Positions 1,851 to 44,830 of a stretch of DNA of 64,000 nt are shown here, piece after piece. The notes under the pieces are model-generated. The model saw nothing but the letters and a program-made list of their open reading frames with translations. It was not told the DNA's origin and made no database searches. Position numbers and translations under genes: made by a program. Location: assembly GCA_030700025.1 (NCBI GenBank), contig JAUYKI010000017.1, forward strand, positions 2,748-66,747, read 5' to 3'. Source of the stretch: a bacterium (GTDB taxonomy: Bacteria; Patescibacteriota; Minisyncoccia; UBA6257; 02-FULL-45-10c). Numbering within the stretch: the first letter of the stretch is position 1; every line of letters starts with the position of its first letter.

Positions 1851-1959
1851 ATCCCGTTAGAAGGTGAAGAATCTTCGTTATTTTAGTAAAATTGCCAAGT
1901 ATTATGAAAATTAATAAAAATAATCAAAAAAGTGACGTTGGGGCCCCTTCTAACGGGAT
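1851..1959. repeat. Inverted-repeat-bounded intergenic cassette (CCCGTTAGA family)
   Basis: ATCCCGTTAGAAGG (1851-1864) is the perfect reverse complement of CCTTCTAACGGGAT (1946-1959). ATGGAT occurs directly at both outer junctions (1848-1853 and 1958-1963). Confidence 0.75.
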
Positions 1960-3340: not shown

Positions 3341-3399
3341 TTTTTTAAATTGGACATTTAGAATTTTATTAGAAATTAGATATTAGTAATTAGAAATTT

Positions 3400-4668
3400 A
3401 TGTTTAAAAAGTATGTTTTATCCAGCGGTTTAAGAGTGGTGTTGGCTCCCCAGCCGGACAATGTGGCGGCCACGGTTTTGGTATTGGTAGAGGCGGGATC
3501 AAAATACGAAACCAAAAAAATTAACGGCTTATCTCATTTTTTGGAACATTTATGTTTTAAGGGAACGGCTAAGCGGCCGACGGCGATTGCCATTGCTTCA
3601 GAATTGGAATCTTTGGGAGCGGTTTACAATGCTTTTACCGGGCACGAAGTAACCGGTTATTACGCCAAAGTCGGCGCGTCTAAAATTAATTCGGCTTTGG
3701 ATATTATCGCCGATCTTTATCAGGACCCGGTTTTTGACGAAGCGGAATTTGAAAAAGAAAAAGGAGTTATTATTGAAGAAATTAATTTATACGAAGATAC
3801 GCCGACCCGGAAAGTCCAGGAACTTTTTACGGAATTGATGTACGGCGATCAGCCGGCCGGCTGGCCCATCGGCGGTTTGAAGGAAGTAATTTTGTCGTTA
3901 AAAAAACAGGATGTTTTGAATTACCGCTCGGAGCACTACGTGGCTAAGGCTACGACCGTAGTGGTTGCTGGCGCTTTTAATGAAAAAGAAATGCTGAAAA
4001 GAATAAAAACGCTTTTTGCTAAAACTCCGGCTAACAAAAAATTCTCTAAAATCCGCACTCAAGAATCCCAGGCCCGGCCTCAAACTTTAGTGCGCTTTAA
4101 AAAATCAGACCAAACTCATTTGGTAATGGGCTTCCGGGCATTTGACCGGTACGATAAACGGCAGTACGCGCTGGAAGTTTTAGCGGATATTTTGGGCGGC
4201 GGCATGAGCTCCCGGCTTTTTCAAAGAATCAGGGCAGAATTAGGCGCGGCTTATTACGTTAAAGCCGGAACCGATTTATTTACGGATCATGGATTTTTGT
4301 CCGTATCGGCCGGAGTGGACCACCGGAAATTAAAAGAAGTTATTGAGGCAGCTTTGGGGGAGTTTAAGAAAATTTCTTCGGTTTTGGTAACTTCCAATGA
4401 GCTAGAAAAATCTAAGAATCATTTGACCGGCCAGGCGATGCTGGGTTTGGAAACCTCGGACGCCTTAGCCAGTTTTTACGGAGAACAGGAGATTTTCCAG
4501 GAAAAGATATTGAACCTTCGGGACGTTATTAAAAAAATAGAGGCCGTGACCGCTAAAGACGTTTTAAACGTTGCCCGTGAAATTATGAAGGATAAAAAGT
4601 TGAATTTGGCGCTTATCGGACCGGTCAAGAAGCTTCCGACCGGGCTGGATTTTAGTTTGGGGCGGTAG
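3400..4668 (+). CDS. M16 family zinc peptidase (pitrilysin-like)
   Basis: HFLEHLCFKGT carries the inverted zinc motif HxxEH. The 422-aa two-domain length is typical. Confidence 0.85.
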   Translation: MFKKYVLSSGLRVVLAPQPDNVAATVLVLVEAGSKYETKKINGLSHFLEHLCFKGTAKRPTAIAIASELESLGAVYNAFTGHEVTGYYAKVGASKINSALDIIADLYQDPVFDEAEFEKEKGVIIEEINLYEDTPTRKVQELFTELMYGDQPAGWPIGGLKEVILSLKKQDVLNYRSEHYVAKATTVVVAGAFNEKEMLKRIKTLFAKTPANKKFSKIRTQESQARPQTLVRFKKSDQTHLVMGFRAFDRYDKRQYALEVLADILGGGMSSRLFQRIRAELGAAYYVKAGTDLFTDHGFLSVSAGVDHRKLKEVIEAALGEFKKISSVLVTSNELEKSKNHLTGQAMLGLETSDALASFYGEQEIFQEKILNLRDVIKKIEAVTAKDVLNVAREIMKDKKLNLALIGPVKKLPTGLDFSLGR

Positions 4669-5796: not shown

Positions 5797-5803
5797 TTAT
5801 TTA

Positions 5804-6092
5804 GAACCTATCTCAATAATATTTCCTAACCGCGTTGCTAAGATAAATGCCAGATTTCAAGGCACGACGACGAAATTATGGCCATAGCCACATTGAGGAG
5901 GAGTAACGAAGAAATATGGCATTTAGACCGCAACCCAAAGGGACATAGTAAATTTTGTTCATAACTTCGTTGCTCGGGCTCGACGTAGCCAAGCTACAGT
6001 CTCGCCCCTGCCTGCCGGTAGGCAGGCTCGCGCCTTGTTCTGAATCAAAATTTACTTATATCGCGTTTGGAATTATTATTGGGATAGGTTCT
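5804..6092 (+). ncRNA. Candidate structured element, ~280-nt family, copy 1 (RNA versus DNA repeat unresolved)
   Basis: 24-nt terminal arms pair (5804-5827 with 6069-6092, 2 mismatches). P2 pairs 5844-5858 with 5911-5925 (14/15). P3 pairs 5947-5957 with 6046-6056 (11/11). Shares the core TGAGGAGGAGTAACGAAG and CTTCGTTGCTCG with the copies at 27767 and 44559. Confidence 0.5.
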
Positions 6093-8410: not shown

Positions 8411-8603
8411 AGGATAGCACACCTCAAACCCTTTGTCAATAGCGGGTTTGCAATCTCTAAATTCTAATCCCTAATCTCTAAATAAACTCGAAGCTCAAAT
8501 ATCCGGATTTTTAAATTTTATTTTTGAGATTGGACATTGGAAATTGTTTAGAAATTAGGGTTTAGGAATTAGAAATTTATCAAAACATGTTATTATTAAT
8601 TCC

Positions 8604-11740: not shown

Positions 11741-11745
11741 AATTT

Positions 11746-11891
11746 AGAAAGAGTGTTTTATTCTCCCGCTACTGTTCAAACTCCCGGCGAGAGTTTTCAC
11801 TGGGTCTCGGGCTTCGCTCTTTCCGCCTTTGGCGGAAAACCCTGCCCGCTCAGCCCTCAGCCCGCGCTACGGAGAATAAAACACTCTTTCT
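11746..11891 (+). repeat. GC-rich inverted-repeat-bounded element, copy E1
   Basis: AGAAAGAGTGTTTTATTCTCC and GGAGAATAAAACACTCTTTCT form perfect 21-nt arms. The interior is homologous to the reverse complement of 36623-36810. Confidence 0.7.
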
Positions 11892-15028: not shown

Positions 15029-15164
15029 CCCGGTATTACAACTTTGATCGTAAAAGTTTCAGCGAGTTATTTAAGAAAAACTATGAAATTACCTAATTTA
15101 TTAATTATAAAGTCGACAAAGCGCTTAATTTTAATTAAGCGCCAATCAAAGTTGTAATACCGGG
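15029..15164. repeat. Inverted-repeat-bounded intergenic cassette abutting the glmS start
   Basis: CCCGGTATTACAACTTTGAT (15029-15048) is the perfect reverse complement of 15145-15164. TATG flanks both outer junctions. Confidence 0.75.
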
Positions 15165-17630: not shown

Positions 17631-18701
17631 TTAGATGCCGAGATAATCCAAGAATTTTCCAAGTTGGGCGTTTTTGGGGCTATGGCTGGTTTTTTCGTTT
17701 GGCGGATTAATAACCATAGATCCGCGAATCAGCTGGGTGTCCAGAAAAGCATCTTTCAGTTTTTTAAAAACTCCGGTTAATTTTTTGGTTTGGGATGTAA
17801 GGAAAAAACTGCTATTAGCAGAACTCCACAAAGCATAAGTATCAAAGCCTAGCGCTTTGGCGGCGGTAAATCCTAGAGGAATTTGATTGCGTTGTTTGAG
17901 CCGTCCGGTTTTTGGATCTTGCGTAGTTTCCACGATGTTTAATAATACTTTTCCCAATTCGGCGCTTTCCGGCTTGGCTCCGCCTTCTGCCATGCGTTTT
18001 TTGGCGGCTTCAATTCCGTTTAAAGATATTTGGACCAATCCTTTATTTTGAAGGCAGATATCCCATAAATTAACCTTTTTACCGCCGGATTCTTTTACCG
18101 TGATTTGTTTGGCCTCTTCTTCGGCAAATGGCTGGCGCGGATCCCGGCCCTCCTGGAAGAATTTGGCAATTAAGCTTAGTGGCAGGGCTTTATAGATTCC
18201 ATAAGGAGTCCGCCACCAGTCATTTTTTAAAAACTCTTCGTCAATCGGATAATCTAAATTATCTATTTGGGTTACAAACTCGGAAAAATTATCCAGCCAC
18301 TTTTCCTTTTTCAGCATTCCGGCTTTAGTCAGGGATTCATAAACAATTGCGGTGGCGGAAGTGGGCTTGCCTTGTTCCGGACCGTGATGGTCAAAGAAAA
18401 TACTGCCGTCTTCTTCCATGGTTAATTCCGGCTTGCCCCCGGTATCAATATGCACCGCGCCGGCCAGGTCTTTTCCTTTTGGCACGAAAGTTACCATTTT
18501 ATAATTAATGCCCGCTAAATCCATTAAAAAGACTCCGCCCATCGCGTCTAAGTCGGGCCGGAGCTTTAATTGGCTTTTTCCGCCTTCGTGGCGGAAATCA
18601 CCGTGGATAACCAGCTGGTCAAAGCCGGCCTTCAGGGTTTCCGCTACCCGTTCTAATGTTTTTTGCTCTGATTTTTCCGGATTGGCTTTAAATTGTTCCA
18701 T
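17631..18701 (-). CDS. DHH-superfamily phosphoesterase-like protein (divergent)
   Basis: Ordered motifs PDLDAMGG, HIDTGG and FFDHHG resemble DHH motifs I-III. No clear DHHA1 GGGH motif. Confidence 0.5.
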   Translation of the reverse strand: MEQFKANPEKSEQKTLERVAETLKAGFDQLVIHGDFRHEGGKSQLKLRPDLDAMGGVFLMDLAGINYKMVTFVPKGKDLAGAVHIDTGGKPELTMEEDGSIFFDHHGPEQGKPTSATAIVYESLTKAGMLKKEKWLDNFSEFVTQIDNLDYPIDEEFLKNDWWRTPYGIYKALPLSLIAKFFQEGRDPRQPFAEEEAKQITVKESGGKKVNLWDICLQNKGLVQISLNGIEAAKKRMAEGGAKPESAELGKVLLNIVETTQDPKTGRLKQRNQIPLGFTAAKALGFDTYALWSSANSSFFLTSQTKKLTGVFKKLKDAFLDTQLIRGSMVINPPNEKTSHSPKNAQLGKFLDYLGI

Positions 18702-18833
18702 CCCTCACCTTTAAAGAACTGCGACGCTATCGCAATTCTTGATTTTAATTAAATGACTTTTTATTGTTGAAAACATAGTTTTGAGTATTAACTTGGCTTC
18801 GGACGCATTATTGGTTCTTTAAGGGTGAGGGAT
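18700..18833. repeat. Inverted-repeat-bounded cassette abutting the start codon of the minus-strand gene
   Basis: ATCCCTCACCTTTAAAGAAC (18700-18719) pairs with GTTCTTTAAGGGTGAGGGAT (18814-18833), 19/20. Read on the minus strand: GTGAGGG-ATG. Confidence 0.7.
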
Positions 18834-19148: not shown

Positions 19149-19637
19149 ATGGACATCCGGGCAGTGATTCGCGGTGTCGGGCCGGACAAGAAGTTTCTGC
19201 TGGTTAGCTATAATTTGGTTTGGGGATTTAAGAGCGGAATACAGAACGGCGGACGGCTGATTATTTGCGCTGGCGATTCTAGAAGCGCCAGCTTAATGAG
19301 CGGAGAAGATAGGTTTGAAGCAGTAAGGCCCCGTTCCGAGTATGATGAGTTGGGATCTAGATTCGTTACCCCTTCGGGCCAGGAAGTTAGAAAGAGCGAC
19401 CTTGGGTTAGTAGTAGTTTACGCGGGATTCGATTTTAAGCTTGCCATAGATTGGGCAAGAATTTTAAAGAAGAATCGATCGATTATTGTCTGGGTCGTAG
19501 CTTGTGATTGTGACTGGGGAAGAAAGAAGAGGATGATAGAAGGAACCGATATTGAGTTAATAGAGGCACGGTGTGGCGGAGACTTTGAGATGGGAAATAT
19601 CGCGCGGGAGATATTGACTGCCACTAATCCAAATTAA
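19149..19637 (+). CDS. Hypothetical protein
   Basis: 162-aa ORF with AAGGAG upstream. No family recognised. Confidence 0.6.
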   Translation: MDIRAVIRGVGPDKKFLLVSYNLVWGFKSGIQNGGRLIICAGDSRSASLMSGEDRFEAVRPRSEYDELGSRFVTPSGQEVRKSDLGLVVVYAGFDFKLAIDWARILKKNRSIIVWVVACDCDWGRKKRMIEGTDIELIEARCGGDFEMGNIAREILTATNPN

Positions 19638-20017: not shown

Positions 20018-20062
20018 AATTGGCTTGTATCGCGTTATGGGATTACTATTAGAATAGGTTCT
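20018..20062 (+). repeat. Solo 3' end of the ~280-nt element family
   Basis: 40 of 45 nt identical to 44787-44831 (AATTGGCT..TATCGCGTTATGGGATTA.TATT.G.ATAGGTTCT). Confidence 0.65.
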
Positions 20063-24822: not shown

Positions 24823-24909
24823 CGGAAGCGGAAGGATTCGAACCTTCGAAGCCATTTCTGGCTTACCGCATTTCAAGTGCGGCCCATTCAACCGCTCTGG
24901 CACGCTTCC
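24823..24909 (-). tRNA. tRNA-Ser (anticodon UGA)
   Basis: Manual cloverleaf: GGAAGCG acceptor stem, anticodon loop CTTGAAA, long variable arm and GGTTCGAATCC T-arm. Confidence 0.9.
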
Positions 24910-27073: not shown

Positions 27074-27147
27074 ATCCCGCTTAGAAGCAGGCCGCCCCAA
27101 GGTGGCTGTAGCCACTCGCTAAAAGCGAGGGCGGCTTCTAACGGGAT
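27074..27147. repeat. Compact hairpin member of the CCCGTTAGA family
   Basis: ATCCCGcTTAGAAGC..GCCGCCC pairs with GGGCGGCTTCTAACGGGAT. Two small apical hairpins. Starts right after the stop codon. Confidence 0.65.
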
Positions 27148-27280
27148 AAACAAACACTCCGCATAGCGGGGTGTTTTACTTTGGCTTGTCCTGCCTGCCC
27201 TGAGTCGTATCGAAGGGAGTTTGCTGGCAGTGAGCTTGTCGAATCTGCCGAAGGGGCTTGCGTTGAGCAAGGTCGAAGTG

Positions 27281-28813: not shown

Positions 28814-28900
28814 GGAAGCGTGCCAGAGCGGTTGAATGGGCCGCACTCGAAATGCGGTATGCCCGAAAGGGCATCGAAGGTTCGAATCCTTCCGCTTCCG
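28814..28900 (+). tRNA. tRNA-Ser (anticodon CGA)
   Basis: Near-identical to the tRNA at 24823-24909, apart from the anticodon and a compensated variable arm. Confidence 0.9.
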
Positions 28901-28957: not shown

Positions 28958-30130
28958 TTGAAAACTGATAAAAAGGCGGTTACGATGGAACCGAAAAAGG
29001 GCTTGCGTGATGTTCCGGCCGGACAGACCCGGCTTTGCTTGTTGGATGAAGCCAACAGCGAACTTTATTATTGCGGTTATTCTATCAGGGATTTAGTTGA
29101 GCATTATCCCTATGAAGCCGTGGCTTATTTGATGCTTCACGGCGAATTGCCTTCCGAGTCGGAATTAAAAATTTTCACCCGTCGCCTGGTGAATAACGCA
29201 TGGAATATGCCTCAAGTGGTAGTTAAGAGTTTGGAGTTAAAAACTCCATTCACTGATGCCCATCCGATGGATAAATTGTCACTGATAATCCGGGCTGACG
29301 GCAATACTCACGGCATTCCGTTTTCTACGCCATCGTTAGAGAATAATTTGGACTTAGCGAAATCTTTGATTGCCCGGTTGCCTTTAATGGTTGCTTTGCT
29401 GGGCGGCGCTAGCCGGAATTATTTTGACTATTTTGATCCAGACCGCACGCTGATGGAAAATTTTGTAGATTCTTTGCGGATCCCGAACGAAGGCGGTTTG
29501 GCAACGAAATTAATGAATGTCGCGTTTATTCTTTACGCGGAACATGAATTCAACGCCGGGTCTTTCGCGGTTCGGGTGGCAGCCAGCGCGCACACCGATA
29601 TTTATTCCGCGGTTTTGGGAGGATTAGGAACTTTGCGCGGTACTCGCCACGGCGGAGCCAATGAAGAAGTAATGAAGAAGATGCTGGAAATCGGAACACC
29701 GGAAAAAACGCGCGAATATTGCGACCGATTTTTGTCTCAGCCGGGAGCGCGCTTGCCGGGATTTGGCCACGCGGTTTATACCATCGGCGATCCGCGGGTA
29801 GCGGTTCTCCGCCCGCTGGTAAAAGATTTGTCGGTCCGAAAGAACGATATGCGCTGGTATGAAATTGCTGTCGCGCTGGAAGAATATATGGCGGAGCGTT
29901 CTCGGGGAAAGTCTAAGCCCTTGCCGGCTAACACTGACCTTTGGACGGCGCCGTTATATCACTTGCTGGGCATCCCGATTCGTCTTTTCACCCCGCTTTT
30001 CGCCGCCTCCCGGGTTTCCGGCTGGTGCGGACATTATTTGGAAGTGCGGCATGTTTACAACGAACCGATTCTTCGGCCGCGCGCCGAATATGTCGGATCC
30101 GCTCCTCGGAAAGTAATCCCTCACTCTTGA
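28958..30130 (+). CDS. Citrate synthase family protein (citrate/2-methylcitrate synthase-like)
   Basis: GFGHAVYTIGDPR active-site region. Start uncertain (TTG 28958 or ATG 28985). The last 4 codons lie in a repeat arm. Confidence 0.85.
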   Translation: MKTDKKAVTMEPKKGLRDVPAGQTRLCLLDEANSELYYCGYSIRDLVEHYPYEAVAYLMLHGELPSESELKIFTRRLVNNAWNMPQVVVKSLELKTPFTDAHPMDKLSLIIRADGNTHGIPFSTPSLENNLDLAKSLIARLPLMVALLGGASRNYFDYFDPDRTLMENFVDSLRIPNEGGLATKLMNVAFILYAEHEFNAGSFAVRVAASAHTDIYSAVLGGLGTLRGTRHGGANEEVMKKMLEIGTPEKTREYCDRFLSQPGARLPGFGHAVYTIGDPRVAVLRPLVKDLSVRKNDMRWYEIAVALEEYMAERSRGKSKPLPANTDLWTAPLYHLLGIPIRLFTPLFAASRVSGWCGHYLEVRHVYNEPILRPRAEYVGSAPRKVIPHS

Positions 30131-30191
30131 AAGAATTAACCTCGCTTATAGCGAGGTTTTTTATAGCAACGTTATTTCAAAAGTGAGGGAT
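30116..30191. repeat. Inverted-repeat cassette, CCCTCAC family
   Basis: ATCCCTCACTCTTGAAA pairs with TTTCAAAAGTGAGGGAT (16/17). The interior holds a CCTCGC/GCGAGG terminator with a T-run. Confidence 0.7.
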
Positions 30192-30269: not shown

Positions 30270-31586
30270 ATGTTGACTACTAAAAATCTGCTGAATCACT
30301 TAGTAAATTTTTCTCATGACCTCAAATACAAAGATCTGCCGCCGGAAGTTGTCCACGAAGCTAAGCGGCGCTTAATTGATTCTATGGCCTGCGCGATAGC
30401 TGGCTCGCATGATCCGGCCACGCTTTTACTTGCTAAAAACTCTTGCGAATCCATGGAAGAGAAAGCCTTCAGATTTACGCATTTAATCCGCGTACTGGAT
30501 TGGAACGATACCTATCTTTCCAAAGAGCCGGCTCATCCTTCTGATAATATCGGCGCCCTGCTCGCGCTTTGTAACTATGGCATTTCCGGAGAAGATTTTA
30601 TTACCGCCATGGTGCTGGCTTATGAAATCCAGTGCCGGTTCTGCGACGCGGCTTCGCTCCGTAAAAATGGCTGGGACCACGTTGCTTACGTTTCGTTAGC
30701 CACTGCGTTTGCCACGGCAAAAATCCTGAAACTCAACCGCGAAAAAATGACCCATGCCGCTTCGCTGGCTCTCCGCTGGATTCCGCTTCGCCAAGTGCGC
30801 GCCGGATCGGACCTTTCAATGTCAAAGGGGCTTTCGGCGGCAGAAGCGGTAAAATTCGGCGTTCATTCAGCTCAATTAGCTAATTGCGGAATTACCGGCC
30901 CAAGCGAAATGATGGAAGGACAATTTGGATTTATTAATCAAGCAACCGGCGAGCTGGATTTTTCCGCCTTTACTTCACTCGGTTCGGAATTCAAAATTCT
31001 GAAAACCCACATTAAACTTTATCCGGTGGAATACCATGCCCAAGCCGCAGTGGATGTGGCTCTGCAAATCCGAAAAACACTAAATGGACGAGTGGAGAAC
31101 ATTACTCGCCTTGACCTTGAATCCTATGAAGCATGCCGAGCCATTATTGCCGACAAAAACAAACGCCGGCCAGCCACTAAAGAATCTGCTGACCATTCCC
31201 TGTTTTATATCATGGCAGTTACTCTTTTAGACGGAGAAATGACCTTGAAGCAATACGCACCCGAAAGATACAATGATCCGGCAGTACTTCAGCTGATTGA
31301 TAAAATGAGCGACGTTCAAGAAACGCCAAAATTTAATGAAGCTTATCTCAATCGAGAAAAACCCGCTTTTCCGCTTCGTTGCAAAGTTATTGGCTACCCC
31401 ATTCCATATACGGTAGAGGTTGAATTTCCCAAGGGCCACTTTGCAAATCCTTTAACCGACGATGAATTAGTTGAAAAGTTTAAGGCCCTAACTAGCCAAG
31501 ATATAAATCCAGTTTCATTAAAATCGGGCCTGGAATATCTTTGGCACTTGGAAGACGAACCGCGCCTCGCTCCTGTAAAATTTTAA
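30270..31586 (+). CDS. MmgE/PrpD family protein (2-methylcitrate dehydratase-like)
   Basis: 438 aa with a PrpD-like pattern throughout and GGAGG upstream. Confidence 0.8.
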   Translation: MLTTKNLLNHLVNFSHDLKYKDLPPEVVHEAKRRLIDSMACAIAGSHDPATLLLAKNSCESMEEKAFRFTHLIRVLDWNDTYLSKEPAHPSDNIGALLALCNYGISGEDFITAMVLAYEIQCRFCDAASLRKNGWDHVAYVSLATAFATAKILKLNREKMTHAASLALRWIPLRQVRAGSDLSMSKGLSAAEAVKFGVHSAQLANCGITGPSEMMEGQFGFINQATGELDFSAFTSLGSEFKILKTHIKLYPVEYHAQAAVDVALQIRKTLNGRVENITRLDLESYEACRAIIADKNKRRPATKESADHSLFYIMAVTLLDGEMTLKQYAPERYNDPAVLQLIDKMSDVQETPKFNEAYLNREKPAFPLRCKVIGYPIPYTVEVEFPKGHFANPLTDDELVEKFKALTSQDINPVSLKSGLEYLWHLEDEPRLAPVKF

Positions 31587-33060: not shown

Positions 33061-34599
33061 ATGGGACCGGAAGAAGCAGATCAGTTAGTTCAGAAATATT
33101 TTAAGCGAAAGGGATTGCCGTTAATGCCAGCAGTTACCTTTGATGATGTTTTAGTTCGGGAAGGAATTTCCAGCATTGCTAGCCGGAGCGACATTACTAA
33201 TTTAAAGGCTCAGCTGGCAAAAGATTTTTGGCTGAATATTCCGGTAGTGTCCGCTAATATGGACACGGTTACGGATTCGCGTATGGCAATTGCTTTGGCT
33301 CGGCTGGGCGGTATGGGTTTCATCCATCAGTTCGTTTCGCTGGAAGACCGGCTGGAAGAAGTCAGCAAGGTTAAGCGGGCGGACAATATGGTGATTGAAA
33401 ATCCGGCGACCATTCGTCCGGAAGCAACTTGGGCGGAAGCGCAAGCGGTAATGGCGGAACGGGAAATTTCCTGTTTGCTGGTTACTGACGCGCAAGGAAT
33501 TTTGGCCGGCATCTTAACGTCGCGCGATACTCAATTTTGTTCCGACCCCAACGCTTTAGTTGGAGATTTAATGACTCCGAAAACCAGAGACGGACACTTT
33601 GTTTTGCAAACTGCCCGTCCGGATATTTCCAATGAAGACGCGGAAAAAATGTTAAAGCGTTCCAAGGTAGAAAAACTTCCTTTAATAGATGATGAGGGCA
33701 AGGTGGTTGGATTGATTACGGCGAAAGATATTTTAAAGCGCCGGATGTTTCCCAACGCGGCCCGGGACGAAAAGGGCCAGCTGTTAGTTGGCGCTACTTT
33801 GCGGTTCAGCGGAAATTATTTGGAAGAAGCGAAAGCGTTGATCGACGCCGGAGCGGATGTATTGCTGTTAGATACGGCGCGAGCCAGTTCTTCATCAGAG
33901 GACGGAATTTTGGCGTCGCAGTATTTAACGCCCGGGAAAATTGTGGAATTAGCCGCGGAAAGAACCGCGAAAATTAAATACGTGTTTCCAAAAATAGTTT
34001 TAGTGGTTGGTAATACTGCCAATCCGGAAGCGGTGGCGCTTCTGGCAAGCCGTGGAGCGGATTGCGTTAAAATCGGAATTGGGCCGGGAGCGGGATGTAA
34101 GACTCAGGAAGTAGCCGGAATCGGTTCGCCTCAGCTTCACGCGATCGCGCAATGCGCGGCGGTGGCCAGAGAAATCGGAGTTTGTTTAATGGCTGACGGC
34201 GGAATTAGAAATGGCGGTTGCATGGTTAAAGCGCTAGTTGGCGGAGCAAATGTGGTGATGCTGGGAAGTTTGCTGGCGGGAACCGACAAATCTCCGGGCC
34301 TGCTGGTTTGGAATCGAAAGGAAAATAAACTGGTTAAGAAATACCGCGGTTCGGCATCCACTGAACATCAGCTGGATAGGATTAAAGTTGGGGATTTGCA
34401 CGCGGTTAGAACGTCAGAGGGCGAAGCCGGAGCGGTTCCTTACATGGGCACGACGGTTTCGCTGATTGATGATCTGCTTGGCGGATTGCGGTCGGGCATG
34501 AGTTATGTCGGCGCCCATAACCTAGAAGAGCTTTGGCAGTTCGGCAGATTTGTTTGGAGAACGCAGGCCGGAATTGAAGAAGGAAGACCCCGAATATAA
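33061..34599 (+). CDS. guaB: IMP dehydrogenase family protein with CBS pair
   Basis: GIGPGAGCKTQEVAGIGSPQ catalytic-Cys loop, and a CBS pair at roughly aa 110-230. Confidence 0.85.
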   Translation: MGPEEADQLVQKYFKRKGLPLMPAVTFDDVLVREGISSIASRSDITNLKAQLAKDFWLNIPVVSANMDTVTDSRMAIALARLGGMGFIHQFVSLEDRLEEVSKVKRADNMVIENPATIRPEATWAEAQAVMAEREISCLLVTDAQGILAGILTSRDTQFCSDPNALVGDLMTPKTRDGHFVLQTARPDISNEDAEKMLKRSKVEKLPLIDDEGKVVGLITAKDILKRRMFPNAARDEKGQLLVGATLRFSGNYLEEAKALIDAGADVLLLDTARASSSSEDGILASQYLTPGKIVELAAERTAKIKYVFPKIVLVVGNTANPEAVALLASRGADCVKIGIGPGAGCKTQEVAGIGSPQLHAIAQCAAVAREIGVCLMADGGIRNGGCMVKALVGGANVVMLGSLLAGTDKSPGLLVWNRKENKLVKKYRGSASTEHQLDRIKVGDLHAVRTSEGEAGAVPYMGTTVSLIDDLLGGLRSGMSYVGAHNLEELWQFGRFVWRTQAGIEEGRPRI

Positions 34600-34711
34600 A
34601 TTTCTAATTACTAATTTCTAATTACTAATGACTAAGTTCAAAATTCAAATCCCGCAATTGCGGGATTTTTTATTTGAAAATACTTCAAAATTGATTTAAT
34701 ATATTTTCAAC

Positions 34712-36622: not shown

Positions 36623-36810
36623 AGAAAAGAAACTTTATTCTCCGTAGCGCGGGCTGAGCCTGCCTGCCGGTAGGCAGGGGCTGAGCGGGCAGGGTGTCCC
36701 GCGAAGCGGGACGAGCGAAGCCCGAGACCCAGTGAAAACTTCCCTCACTCTTGTACAAAAGTGAGGGACTGGGAGTTTGAACGGTAGCGGGAGAATAAAG
36801 TTTCTTTTCT
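36623..36810 (-). repeat. GC-rich inverted-repeat-bounded element, copy E2 (inverted relative to E1)
   Basis: AGAAAAGAAACTTTATTCTCC and GGAGAATAAAGTTTCTTTTCT form perfect arms. Homologous to E1, with two nested hairpin insertions (36659-36678, 36741-36768). Its end overlaps the comFC stop codon. Confidence 0.7.
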
Positions 36811-37507
36811 AGCGTGTTTTAGCAATTACCAACGCGATTATTTTTTTGGCGCCGGCGGATTTTAAAGTTTTAGCGGCTTCGCGGATAGTGGCTCCGGAAG
36901 TGTGAACGTCGTCAACGAGAAGGATATTTTTTCCCACTATCAGTTCTGGGTAATTAACCGCGAAGCAGTTAATCACATTTTGCGCCCGTTCTTCATGATT
37001 CTTGGCAAGCGACTGGGTTTTAGTATTTTTAATTCTTTGAATCGGCTCCGTTAAATCTAATTTATAAAAATCAGCAACAATTTTCGCAATCAATTTTGCC
37101 TGATTAAATCCGCGTTCTTTTTCCCGATCTTCGTGAAGCGGGATTGGAACCACGGTAAAATTTCTAATATCTAAATCCAAATTTCTAAGATACGAGACTA
37201 GAATTTCGCCTAATGGCCTTTGAAGCCGCTGCCATTTTTTAAATTTAAATAATTTCAGCAAAGTCCGGATGGAATCGTTATCGTAATTAGTGGCGGCGGC
37301 CAAAAGATAAGGAGAATCTTTATGGCAGACCTTTTTATTATCCGCCAGGCGCAATCCGCAAACCGGGCAAAAAAGCGAAGTATTGAGGCGGATGCCGGCC
37401 CAGCACTCCGGGCAAAGATCGCCTTCAGCGTTTTTTTGGCAGTTTAAGCAGAGCGGAGGAAAGAGGATGTCCCACAGCCAGGTTTTCATTTTTTGGAGAT
37501 AGCTCAT
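36809..37507 (-). CDS. comFC: ComF family protein (double zinc ribbon plus phosphoribosyltransferase domain)
   Basis: CLNC...CPEC...CPVCG zinc ribbons and a PRTase motif ILLVDDVHTSGAT. ATG 37507 preferred over TTG 37543. Confidence 0.85.
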   Translation of the reverse strand: MSYLQKMKTWLWDILFPPLCLNCQKNAEGDLCPECWAGIRLNTSLFCPVCGLRLADNKKVCHKDSPYLLAAATNYDNDSIRTLLKLFKFKKWQRLQRPLGEILVSYLRNLDLDIRNFTVVPIPLHEDREKERGFNQAKLIAKIVADFYKLDLTEPIQRIKNTKTQSLAKNHEERAQNVINCFAVNYPELIVGKNILLVDDVHTSGATIREAAKTLKSAGAKKIIALVIAKTR

Positions 37508-37750
37508 GTCTGTTATACTAATAATAGATTTAGAATAAGGCAATGGATTCCAATAACTAATTTCTAATATCTAATTTCTAATAAAATGACCGAAATCACA
37601 AACCACAAGCACCAAATCACAAACAAGCACCAATGACCAAAATCATAAATTTAAAACCCGTTTGGAATTTCTATTATTTGAATTTAGAATTTGTTTGTAA
37701 TTTGAGATTTGTAATTTGGAATTTTATCAGAAATTGTAAATTGTAAATTT

Positions 37751-39378: not shown

Positions 39379-39504
39379 ATCCCACACATAACAAAGACTA
39401 TAGGATATTTAAGCTAATAACTATGATAGTAGAATTAAAATGTCACATTAAATTAAAAGGCAAGGATTTGCGGAAAACTTCGCAGTCTTTGTTATGTGTG
39501 GGAT
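39379..39504. repeat. Inverted-repeat-bounded intergenic cassette abutting the pilO start
   Basis: ATCCCACACATAACAAAGACT (39379-39399) is the perfect 21-nt reverse complement of 39484-39504. ATGAA occurs at both outer junctions. Confidence 0.75.
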
Positions 39505-40398: not shown

Positions 40399-40518
40399 AT
40401 CCCGTTAGAGATAGGCCGTCAAAGGCGGCCGTAGCTCGTCCGTTCTAATGGCGCTCAGAGTTTAAAATAAAAACAAAGGTTAATAATATAAATCTAATTT
40501 AGTTATCTCTAACGGGAT
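40399..40518. repeat. Inverted-repeat-bounded intergenic cassette (CCCGTTAGA family)
   Basis: ATCCCGTTAGAGATA (40399-40413) is the perfect reverse complement of 40504-40518. ATGGAT occurs at both outer junctions. Confidence 0.75.
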
Positions 40519-42284: not shown

Positions 42285-43352
42285 ATGGCTGATTATAAGG
42301 CGAGATTAATAGATTTACTTTCCGAGGCGGTCAAGCAAGACGCTTCGGATTTGCATATTGCGGTAGGTCAAAAGCCGATGCTTCGGAAGGACGGAAGTTT
42401 GGTAGCTTTAGAAAGTGAATCGGTTCTGAACCCTAAGGACGCCGAAGGATTGGTGTTGGCGTTATTAAACCCTGATCAAAAAAACAAATTCTTGGAAGAA
42501 AAGCAGTTAGATTTTGCGTATGACCTGGATGGCAGAGCCAGGTTCCGTATTAACGCCTATTTTCAAAGAGGATTTATGTCGGCGGCGCTCCGTTTAATTT
42601 CGGCGAAAGTTAAAACATTGGAAGAATTGGGCTTGCCGATGGTGTTGAGGGAATTTGCCAAATTATCCCAAGGGCTCTTGCTGGCAGTCGGTCCGGCTGG
42701 ACAAGGAAAGTCCACGACTTTAGCGGTGGTAGTAGATGAAATCAATCGCCAGCGCGCCGACCATATTATTACCATTGAAGACCCGATTGAATATTTGTTT
42801 GAACAAAATAAAAGCATTATTTCCCAGCGGGAAGTTCGTTTGGATACTTTAACGTTTCACGACGCCTTGCGATCGGTTTTGCGGCAGGATCCGGATGCAA
42901 TTATGATCGGTGAAATGCGCGACGCGGAATCTATTGCCAGCGCTTTAACCGCCGCGGAAACCGGCCATTTGGTTCTTTCCACCTTGCATACTAATTCGGC
43001 TTCTCAGACTATTGACCGGATTGTGGATAGTTTTCCGTCCGGCCAGCAGCCGCAAATTATTTCTCAGCTGGCATCCACTTTGATAGGCATTGTTTCCAAA
43101 AGATTAATTCCTAAAATTGGCGGCGGACGGGTTCCGGCTTGCGAAATTATGATAATGAATCCGGCAATCCGGAATTTAATCCGGGAAAAGAAGTTTTTCC
43201 AGATAGATAACGTTATTGAAACCAGCAAAGGCGAGGGCATGATCAGCTTAAACCGTTCTTTATCGGAGCTGGTGAAGGCCAAGCAAATTACTCCGGCGAA
43301 CGCGGAATTATATTCCATTAGCCCGAAAGAATTAAAATTGATGTTAAAATGA
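42285..43352 (+). CDS. pilT: Twitching motility (retraction) ATPase PilT
   Basis: GPAGQGKSTT Walker A, 355 aa, PilT-type length. Confidence 0.9.
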   Translation: MADYKARLIDLLSEAVKQDASDLHIAVGQKPMLRKDGSLVALESESVLNPKDAEGLVLALLNPDQKNKFLEEKQLDFAYDLDGRARFRINAYFQRGFMSAALRLISAKVKTLEELGLPMVLREFAKLSQGLLLAVGPAGQGKSTTLAVVVDEINRQRADHIITIEDPIEYLFEQNKSIISQREVRLDTLTFHDALRSVLRQDPDAIMIGEMRDAESIASALTAAETGHLVLSTLHTNSASQTIDRIVDSFPSGQQPQIISQLASTLIGIVSKRLIPKIGGGRVPACEIMIMNPAIRNLIREKKFFQIDNVIETSKGEGMISLNRSLSELVKAKQITPANAELYSISPKELKLMLK

Positions 43353-44557
43353 AATTTAAATACGTTGCTAAAACTAAAACCGGCGAGCTGCAAACAGGAT
43401 TTATTGAATCGCAGGACCGCAATTCCGCCACTAGCGCTTTGGTTAGCCACGAGCTGGCAGTTTTAAGCTTAGAATCCGCGGATGTGCCAAAGTGGTACGA
43501 ACAATTTTTAAATTTATTTAAAAGAGTAAGCAGTACCGACCTGATGGTTTTTACCCGCCAATTCGCCACTTTATTGGATGCTAAAATTTCCTTGGGCGAT
43601 TCTTTAAAAAATCTTCATCGCCAAACCCGCAATGTTGCCTTAAAAGAAGCGGTATTTGATATTTCGGCGGACATTGAAGCCGGCTTGTCTTTATCGCAGG
43701 CCTTGGAGCGGCACTCCGCGATTTTTCCGGACTTCTACGTTAACATGGTGCGTTCGGCGGAAATTACCGGCCGGATGAGCGAAGTTATGATGTTTTTGGC
43801 GGATTATCTGGAAAAGACCCAGGCGACTTCCACTAAAGTCCGGAACGCCATGATTTATCCGGTAGTGGTAATTATTTTGCTGGTTGGCGTGATGCTGGTG
43901 ATGGTAGGTTTTGTTTTTCCTAAGTTAATTCCGGTTTTTGAAGAATCAAACGTGGAATTGCCGTTAATCACTAAAATAATTTTTGCCATTGGAACCTTTA
44001 TCAGCAATTGGTGGTGGCTGGTTTTGCTGGCTTCTATTGCCGGAGCTTATTTTCTGGTTTCTTACTTAAAAACCAAAGAGGGCAGGGTAGTGTTAGACGA
44101 AGTTTTAATGAAATTGCCGGTTTTTGGAACTATGCTTCGGAAGCTGTATATTTCTAGATTTGCCGAACTGACCAGCGTTTTGATAAAAGGCGGAACTCCG
44201 ATAGCCCAAAGTTTGGGAATTGCCGGCAATACCGTGGGCAGTTTTATTTATCGGGACCAGATTTTAGAAATTGCCGAAGCGGTCCGGCAGGGACAGCTGA
44301 TGTCCCAGGCGCTGGAAGAACGGCAGGTGTATTTTCCGGTTTTAGTCAGCCAGATGGTTTCCGTGGGCGAAAGCACCGGCAAGCTGGAAGAGTTATTAAG
44401 CCGGGTATCAAGCTTTTACACAAGAGAAGTGGATGACTTGGTTAATAATTTGGTAGAATTAATTCAGCCCCTTCTGATGGTAGTAATCGGCGTGGCAGTA
44501 GGAATTTTATTTGCTTCAGTATTGCTGCCAATTTTCAGCTTGGTGCAGACTTTCTAA
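43349..44557 (+). CDS. pilC: Type IV pilus platform protein PilC (GspF family)
   Basis: 402 aa with two GspF repeats and 3 TM segments. Overlaps pilT by 4 nt. Confidence 0.9.
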   Translation: MKFKYVAKTKTGELQTGFIESQDRNSATSALVSHELAVLSLESADVPKWYEQFLNLFKRVSSTDLMVFTRQFATLLDAKISLGDSLKNLHRQTRNVALKEAVFDISADIEAGLSLSQALERHSAIFPDFYVNMVRSAEITGRMSEVMMFLADYLEKTQATSTKVRNAMIYPVVVIILLVGVMLVMVGFVFPKLIPVFEESNVELPLITKIIFAIGTFISNWWWLVLLASIAGAYFLVSYLKTKEGRVVLDEVLMKLPVFGTMLRKLYISRFAELTSVLIKGGTPIAQSLGIAGNTVGSFIYRDQILEIAEAVRQGQLMSQALEERQVYFPVLVSQMVSVGESTGKLEELLSRVSSFYTREVDDLVNNLVELIQPLLMVVIGVAVGILFASVLLPIFSLVQTF

Positions 44558-44558
44558 T

Positions 44559-44830
44559 GAACCTATCCCAATAATAATCCTCAAACGCGTTGCTAGTATA
44601 AATTGAAAATTTCTAGGCCTGCCGAGGAGCTTGTGGCCATAGCCACAGTGAGGAGGCAGAACAACGAAATTTTCAATTTAGACAGCAACCCCAAGAGGGA
44701 TACAGCCAATTTTATCCATAACGTCGTTGCTCGTCGAAGATATAGCTTACGCTATAAATCTTCTCCTCGCGTCTAGTTCTGAATAAAATTGGCTAATATC
44801 GCGTTATGGGATTATTATTGGGATAGGTTC
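44559..44830 (+). ncRNA. Candidate structured element, ~280-nt family, copy 2 (best preserved)
   Basis: P1 22/22, P2 15/15, P3 12/12, two hairpins and conserved cores. See the finding for coordinates. Confidence 0.55.

Follow-up and report, generated by a model that had tools for sequence, protein, structure and literature searches.

Our study of a 64,000-nt stretch of bacterial DNA (contig JAUYKI010000017.1, positions 2,748 to 66,747; hereafter the window) identified a family of inverted repeats, with CCCTCAC in one arm and GTGAGGG in the other, which are probably small non-coding hairpin-forming insertion elements. They would be selfish elements comparable to repetitive extragenic palindromic (REP) sequences and MITEs (miniature transposable elements with inverted repeats), in a compact genome that probably belongs to the Patescibacteria/candidate phyla radiation (CPR). 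Comparison with contigs of related organisms, retrieved via the closest protein homologues, shows lineage-specific insertion at three sites and replacement of protein termini; the structure of the elements is conserved, and they are present in other organisms. As a preliminary description of this DNA had claimed, one 16-mer, ATCCCTCACTCTTGAA, supplies the residues IPHS and a TGA stop codon to two unrelated proteins, a citrate synthase and a membrane protein, at coordinates that our analysis confirms. The features of these two gene ends are the following.

28985-30130, plus strand: citrate/2-methylcitrate synthase gene, with a possible alternative TTG start at 28958
30116-30191, plus strand: first copy (copy 1) of the CCCTCAC palindrome, with a 72-nt core, CCC...GGG, at 30118-30189
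30116-30131, plus strand: left arm of copy 1, ATCCCTCACTCTTGAA, encoding I-P-H-S and the TGA stop (30128-30130)
30138-30164, plus strand: terminator-like hairpin (9-bp stem) and T-run inside copy 1
30176-30191, plus strand: right arm of copy 1, TTCAAAAGTGAGGGAT
62483-63121, plus strand: gene of a 212-aa membrane protein with no Pfam hit, ending in ...NLIPHS-stop
63107-63245, plus strand: copy 2, core 63109-63243 (135 nt), its inverted repeat extending to ~22 nt
63107-63122, plus strand: left arm of copy 2, ATCCCTCACTCTTGAA, with TGA at 63119-63121
63230-63245, plus strand: right arm of copy 2, TTCAAAAGTGAGGGAT
63245-63270, no strand assigned: relic of the ancestral gene end, with the old TAA (63245-63247) in frame and a terminator hairpin (63250-63270)

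At the membrane-protein gene, the sister contig L118 provides an orthologue of 86% identity that ends in ...NLISE-stop, and an ending in NLI-x-E or NLI-x-D is found in ten of ten homologues. The spacer to the convergent downstream gene measures 28 nt in this sister versus 158 nt in the window, and the element of ~135 nt is the only large difference between the two, which align without ambiguity. The empty site of the sister reads ...AATTTAAT / TAGCGA / ATAAAAAACTCCGC, and the filled site of the window reads ...AATTTAAT (CCCTCAC..135 nt..GTGAGGG) ATAAAAAACTCCGC. Directly beyond the right arm of copy 2 the old TAA and the native terminator have been kept, where the sister reads ...AATTAGCGAATAAAAAACTCCGC.... 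A second contig of the same species (L119) bears copy 2 unchanged, and the sole other sequence ending in IPHS is P0122, which is 99% identical and comes from the same species.

In the citrate synthase ORF (open reading frame), 28985-30130, the Pfam citrate synthase domain is complete and reaches residue 375 of 390. The tail that follows reads ...APRK / VIPHS-stop in the window versus ...APRK / ISVL-stop in an orthologue of 91% identity (L116); the latter is without a CCCTCAC element, and the divergence between the two begins exactly at the arm of copy 1. In a 68%-identical orthologue (L117), the gene overlaps directly with the next one (GTGA). Copy 1 folds into a single long stem with one C·A mismatch (z = -8.4). 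The 3' half of its internal hairpin resembles the sister terminator at 13/14 positions, and a copy from a metagenome (L120, below) likewise holds an internal TAACC...GGTTTTTT hairpin; the hairpin in copy 1 may have been brought by the element or may be an enclosed native terminator. Two further observations concern this neighbourhood. The synthase gene (28985-30130) is followed by an MmgE/PrpD-family gene (30270-31586), which makes a 2-methylcitrate-cycle gene pair in an apparent Patescibacteria-type genome. The region just before the citrate synthase gene is bracketed by two 87-nt tRNA genes in inverted orientation (24823-24909 and 28814-28900), which are separated by 3.9 kb and show 94% complementarity along 89 nt.

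The proposal in the preliminary description that insertion replaced the native C-termini is supported by the endings of the two element-free orthologues; the native ends have been lost, but the loss covers only the last 2-5 residues, hence there is no sizeable truncation. Its statement that the repeat donated IPHS to the membrane protein has to be narrowed to PHS, the isoleucine being already native. The partner arms that it placed downstream are present, with spacings corrected from 45 and ~100 nt to 44 and 107 nt between the 16-nt arms. No repeat-free orthologue among those examined ends in IPHS. The idea that IPHS belongs natively to both proteins, as a C-terminal peptide selected for its function and acquired by each independently, draws on the (F/Y)(I/V)P found near the C-terminus of many citrate synthase relatives and on a conserved I at the matching position in the membrane-protein family; nevertheless, we assign it a negligible probability, given that no homologue ends in this way (0 of the 70 listed citrate synthase tails and 0 of the 9 distinct membrane-protein homologues) and that the identity spans 18 nt of DNA and reaches the non-coding partner arm. 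Use of TGA as a sense codon (code 25) was ruled out as well, both by ORFs of up to 991 aa that run uninterrupted under table 11 and by an ATGA overlap at 43349-43352 in which TGA is used as a stop.

A looser search found a fourth copy, absent from the preliminary description, with paired arms at 18700-18715 and 18818-18833; its inner end adjoins a start codon.

18700-18833, minus strand: copy 4, variant subfamily ATCCCTCACCCTTAAAGAAC ... GTTCTTTAAAGGTGAGGGAT, core 18702-18831 (130 nt)
17631-18701, minus strand: conserved 356-aa gene, its native ATG directly after copy 4 (GGTGAGGG / ATG)

On the minus strand this copy reads AAAGTAATCCCTCACCCTTAAAGAAC ... GTTCTTTAAAGGTGAGGGAT / G, and the final ATG starts gene 17631-18701, whose N-terminus, ME.F..., is conserved among homologues. 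The site was compared with the sister contig L124 by an anchored 12-mer test against the window: with one mismatch or fewer, the sister 12-mer occurs at 4 of 128,000 window positions, one of which is the exact outer flank of copy 4. The empty site in the sister reads AAAGAAAATAAT / ATGGAACAATTT and the filled site in the window AAAGAAAGTAAT (130 nt) ATGGAACAATTT. Read against each other, these sites show that copy 4 is a clean 130-nt insertion between the 5' leader and the ATG, with nothing duplicated. A weak outward promoter-like site in copy 4 is not above shuffle expectation. The 356-aa gene and the divergently oriented MEKFIGL... gene are separated by 102 nt in L124 versus ~1.36 kb in the window (18702 to ~20065), where the extra DNA holds copy 4, a 162-aa ORF without a Pfam hit (19149-19637) and other repeat families (e.g. 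20038-20062).

The remaining copy of the window is the smallest, and it stands inside another repeat, as had been noted before at the same coordinates.

36741-36768, plus strand: copy 3, a minimal 28-nt hairpin (core 36742-36767) that occupies the apical loop of a larger element with inverted repeats
36624-36809, no strand assigned: the host element E2, ~185 nt, with terminal inverted repeats GAAAAGAAACTTTATTCTCC / GGAGAATAAAGTTTCTTTTC

A second E2 copy, at ~11745-11880 on the minus strand, is without the copy 3 hairpin. As for E2 itself, its copies are ~135-185 nt long, with 20-nt terminal inverted repeats and a G+C-rich interior of nested hairpins; they also differ by a 20-nt block near 36660, and the right end of the one at 36624-36809 adjoins the TAG stop of gene 36809-37543.

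Outside the window, a paired-arm scan of Joint Genome Institute (JGI) metagenomes yielded three further loci.

L120, ~80 nt: 30 nt past a stop codon, between complementary AAGCCC and GGGCTT flanks that are followed by a T-run
L121, 35-nt hairpin: directly adjoining the TAA of an ftsA-like gene
L122/L123, 36-nt hairpin: in a divergent intergenic region

The AAGCCC/GGGCTT flanks of L120 could be the split halves of a native terminator stem. The same locus has a second hairpin at 484-510, CCCTTCACTCTT-GTA-AAGAGTGAAGGG followed by a T-run, whose stem differs from the family core by one extra T; it could be taken for a relative of the element, nested within it and serving as a terminator. Other searches gave no further copies. 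The CCCTCAC and companion elements are missing from ~7 kb of sister contigs and from 24 kb of more distant relatives; viral contigs gave zero matches to paired arms at spacings of 1-61 and 61-121 nt; the membrane protein had no exact match in a contig index; and a scan of a genome collection with the 16-mer ATCCCTCACTYTTGAA returned at least 115 single chance matches, none listed with a partner arm.

The seven copies share one anatomy. In the window, the core 12-mer occurs nine times with up to two mismatches, against 2.6 expected (0 of 100 shuffles reach nine), and the six strong matches make up three inverted pairs. All seven copies have a closing T...A pair, CCCTCAC paired with GTGAGGG and one more pair (T-A, or C-G in copy 4); then comes a C·A mismatch at the same stem position in every copy, read as G·U or G·T on the other strand; past it follow T-A, T-A and G-C (A-T in copy 4). 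The outer stem of 13 bp, TCCCTCAC(T/C)·TT(G/A), is therefore conserved around an interior of 2 to 111 nt, while the innermost stem adds 1-7 further pairs that are specific to each copy in sequence yet complementary. The inverted termini measure 13-22 bp and whole elements 26-135 nt, and all are non-coding. The preliminary description had pointed to a C versus T asymmetry between the left arm and the reverse complement of the right arm, at one stem position of its three copies, and had concluded that they form a sequence family; the asymmetry is present in all three, and it recurs in copy 4 as well as in the three independent copies from metagenomes.

A stem of this kind might also be a host signal in RNA or DNA that acts in cis and has been spread and kept by selection, for instance by stabilising mRNA 3' ends, clamping terminators, coupling translation or binding a protein. 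The conserved stem with its invariant mismatch would suit such a role, as would the compensated changes, which affect two stem positions in copy 4 and all inner helices, and the orientation of the elements: the C-bearing arm is 5' on the sense strand of the adjacent gene in all six assignable copies, a bias that is only suggestive with n = 6 and some freedom in gene assignment. Two copies, moreover, enclose terminator hairpins, and one companion family (below) pairs the upstream stop region with the downstream start region. Nonetheless, complementary inner stems are equally expected of a DNA palindrome, the orthologous sites of close relatives are without the element and their genes function regardless, and the contexts are unrelated to one another (3' ends, one 5' end, the promoter region of divergent genes and the inside of another repeat). 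Protein ends are altered by the element, and in Rfam 15 only tRNAs of the window reach the gathering score, with permissive scans adding sub-threshold matches to generic hairpins only. A consensus scan for intrinsic terminators has matches within copy 1 and next to copy 2 but none to the stem of the element, and the short copies are without a T-run. We regard a host signal as an unlikely identity for the family, although the hairpin of an insertion element may secondarily serve the host by stabilising transcripts or coupling translation; the data do not need it.

Another reading takes the arms for paired short recognition words, such as a DNA-uptake sequence or a regulator operator, which happen to be arranged behind genes in inverted pairs resembling terminators. 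In Neisseria and Haemophilus, inverted pairs of uptake sequences are frequent behind genes, and the spacing between the arms is variable here. This reading is very unlikely in view of the absence of solo arms from the 64 kb, where each strong match is paired, of the one fixed position at which the two arms always differ, and of whole units, interior included, being present or absent between genomes.

The placement of the copies is not random with respect to gene ends, a point on which the preliminary description depended: four of the seven overlap a stop or start codon or lie right against one. By our own estimate, uniformly random intergenic insertion would touch such a boundary in ~5-10% of cases; the coding density is 84% and the median spacer 110 nt. 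The left flank is TAAT in 4/7 copies and ends in AT in 6/7, and the right flank starts with A in 7/7 and with AT in 4/7. Clean outgroups are available for two sites, and in each of these the empty site already has both ATs, so that the target, judged from the flanking ATs and the empty sites together, looks like (TA)AT^AT. No target-site duplication is consistent across the seven copies under any choice of element boundary.

These flanks bear on a more conventional alternative, in which the repeats are MITEs derived from an insertion sequence (IS), mobilised by a DDE transposase encoded elsewhere, and a 2-bp AT duplication is hidden as an extension of the inverted repeat, AT being self-complementary. 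Terminal inverted repeats, small size and several copies are what such a MITE would have, and AT is found on both sides of the core in 4/7 copies. In addition, the companion families F2-F4 often have flanking direct repeats of 4-6 bp that resemble duplications (ATGGAT twice, TATG, ATGAAT/ATGAAA). Against it, the sister site of copy 4 already holds both ATs (TAATATGG), so that nothing was duplicated there, and an AT duplication at the site of companion F2 would strip the upstream gene of its stop. The interiors, furthermore, differ between copies without relation, forms of 26-36 nt are below the typical size of MITEs, and no matching IS was seen in the window. A 2-bp AT duplication keeps some small probability, and we consider the DDE-derived MITE as a whole a rather improbable source of the family.

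Insertion of small hairpin-forming elements, the reading that we favour, would proceed as follows. The elements would enter A/T-rich (TA)AT^AT sites, which are often formed by TAA stops and ATG starts. As spacers are short, insertions would survive only at the very edges of genes, and this would be the reason that the copies sit on gene ends. Only one of the three frames in which the arm can be read reaches a stop at once (ATC CCT CAC TCT TGA), and the other two would add more than 20 residues; the short frame is the one found in both gene-end copies (1 and 2), in keeping with selection for the least damage. An element that landed in the last codons with AT at codon positions 1-2 would be read in this frame, and the protein would then end in ...IPHS with few native residues lost; at a 5' end, the other arm would leave GGTGAGGG directly ahead of the ATG. 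We infer that the IPHS tail is explained by selection and not by function: since the family is also found on a start codon and inside another repeat, the donation of a C-terminus would be a by-product and not a purpose. Mobility would be provided in trans by an enzyme encoded elsewhere, and our leading guess is a transposase of the HUH/Y1 type that recognises single-strand hairpins, as for REPs. An enzyme of this sort fits best because there is no duplication, the mismatch marks the strand, insertion occurred into an apical loop (copy 3 and possibly L120) and the orientation appears biased.

It is important to consider the observations that weigh against insertion. First, with regard to the sites, copy 1 may enclose the terminator of the gene instead of carrying its own, no clean-insertion reconstruction exists for it, and a native-codon relic after its right arm is not significant; the copy 2 site is short of 6 nt of native sequence, which makes that insertion not perfectly clean; and the ancestral state is inferred from one or two outgroup sequences per site. 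Second, with regard to the family, it is known from seven copies only, and copies 1, 2 and 4 have interiors that bear no similarity to one another, which is unusual for a MITE family, or to the rest of the window. Third, a Pfam scan of the 37 ORFs of the window found no transposase of any kind, and the 64 kb contain no autonomous element with ends of the CCCTCAC type.

The CCCTCAC repeats are accompanied in the window by at least three other families that share with them the outline AT / CCC...GGG / AT, so that the genome holds at least four such families, all close against stop or start codons. The second family, ATCCCGTTAGAAGC ... GCTTCTAACGGGAT, called the CCCGTTAGAAG family below, has these five copies.

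37-71: copy cut by the start of the window
1851-1959: second copy
27074-27149: third copy
40399-40518: fourth copy
62364-62484: fifth copy

In the sister L118, the gene of a GatA-like amidase and that of the membrane protein overlap in a TAATG stop/start junction; in the window a core of 117 nt has been wedged in there (62364-62484), and the tail of the amidase changes from EKL-stop to EKLSR-stop, with a new TAG inside the arm. The left arm in this family supplies the TAG stop of the amidase or adjoins a TAA stop, and the right arm leads straight into the start codon, ATG, of four genes (69, 1958, 40517 and 62483). In the window, CTAACGGGATG starts four genes. On the JGI contig L121, the CCCTCAC family is found along with the CCCGTTAGAAG family and an element of the CCCCACAC type, a co-occurrence that is compatible with a shared mobilising system. 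More speculatively, CCCTCAC and its companions CCCGTTAGAAG, CCCACACATAAC and CCCGGTATTAC may possibly constitute an undescribed, duplication-free foldback superfamily in CPR bacteria that homes to TAAT^ATG stop/start junctions, one arm having a built-in stop, the other leaving a ribosome-binding-like GAGGG/ACGGG before the ATG, and the mismatch marking strand-specific transposition of single-stranded DNA. If true, its elements could wedge between overlapping genes and inactivate neither of them.

Other details of the repeats in the window are as follows. Two second-family copies are flanked by identical 6-bp direct repeats, ATGGAT. Elements with the outline AT / CCC...GGG / (T)AT at 39379-39504 and 15029-15164, CCCACACATAACAAAGACT and CCCGGTATTACAACTTTGATCG, stand directly before start codons; they have a copy of the start region (ATGAAT, TATG) at the left flank and an ORF of 43 codons that begins there, crosses the element and stops at the real ATG or slightly ahead of it. 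Their arrangement resembles that of mycobacterial interspersed repetitive units (MIRUs, below) and might preserve translational coupling. An inverted-repeat family GAACCTATCCCAATAATAATCC ... GGATTATTATTGGGATAGGTTC is present at 5802-6092, 44559-44830, 20038-20062 and 57122-57146, with an interior of ~200 nt that contains GAGGAGG, and one of its copies starts directly after the TAA of gene 43349-44557. Finally, A/T-rich simple repeats with a 7-nt period (TTAGAAA and TCTAGAA types) fill many spacers right after stops on both strands, for example at 1782-1823, 3358-3404, 8537-8580, 34588-34649, 37548-37587 and 58092-58135.

If the reading as small insertion elements is right, even very small and gene-dense CPR genomes seem to contain miniature mobile DNA that is, or recently was, active, and that edits housekeeping proteins at their very ends as well as the spacing at operon junctions. 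In annotating such genomes, identical short C-terminal tails or GGGATG start contexts may be derived from repeats and not be functional motifs. The pairs of empty and filled sites, the missing duplication and the invariant mismatch offer a handle for finding the responsible enzyme.

Among known systems, REP elements and REPINs are thought to be mobilised by REP-associated tyrosine transposases (RAYTs) of the HUH/Y1 class. The short forms described here (26-36 nt) resemble them: they are imperfect palindromes in which the stem is conserved, a mismatch at a fixed place confers polarity and the loop varies, they lie at gene ends, and they have no target-site duplication; copy 3, L121 and L122/L123 (28-36 nt) agree with REPs in size and placement, L121 adjoining a TAA. 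They differ from REPs in that they have no GTAG or CGTC tag, the ends of the family being (A)TCCCTCAC / GTGAGGGA(T), in that the arms are separated by up to 111 nt of unrelated sequence, and in that no RAYT gene was seen in the 64-kb window of this CPR-type genome. The termini of REPs provide stop codons to flanking ORFs, and REPs also insert inside other palindromes (PMC3733652). In Coxiella burnetii, the insertions of QMITE1 and QMITE2 in functional genes are all at the 3' end, with an overlap of 1-50 bp, and supply the last residues and/or the stop, with little change in protein size (PMC5896051). Both are small inverted-repeat elements; however, QMITEs have family-wide interiors and direct repeats, whereas here only the outer 13 bp are shared and there is no duplication. 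MIRUs are described as mobile repeats that insert at start codons, with downstream expression kept (PMC12548453). Copy 4 and the companion families are likewise placed exactly on start codons, and some elements of the window carry short ORFs ending at or near the ATG of the gene, but MIRUs are direct, often tandem, repeats and not palindromes.

The attC sites of integrons are imperfect palindromes with conserved ends, a variable centre and unpaired bases that mark the strand, and they are placed at or over the 3' end of an ORF. Their RYYYAAC/GTTRRRY core sites are absent from the CCCTCAC arms, and the flanking genes here are syntenic housekeeping genes and not cassettes, only the palindrome being gained or lost; an attC site was rejected, as were an uptake-sequence pair and a native IPHS motif. 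With MITEs, the family shares terminal inverted repeats and small non-coding size, but not a target-site duplication, a shared interior or, among the 37 ORFs scanned, a parent IS. Since it has neither the tags of REPs nor the duplication and conserved interior of MITEs, we file it as a family of its own, within neither named group. That palindromic repeats supply stop codons is a general phenomenon already documented elsewhere, and elements of this kind are known from REPs, the QMITEs of Coxiella and MIRUs; the CCCTCAC family itself is new.

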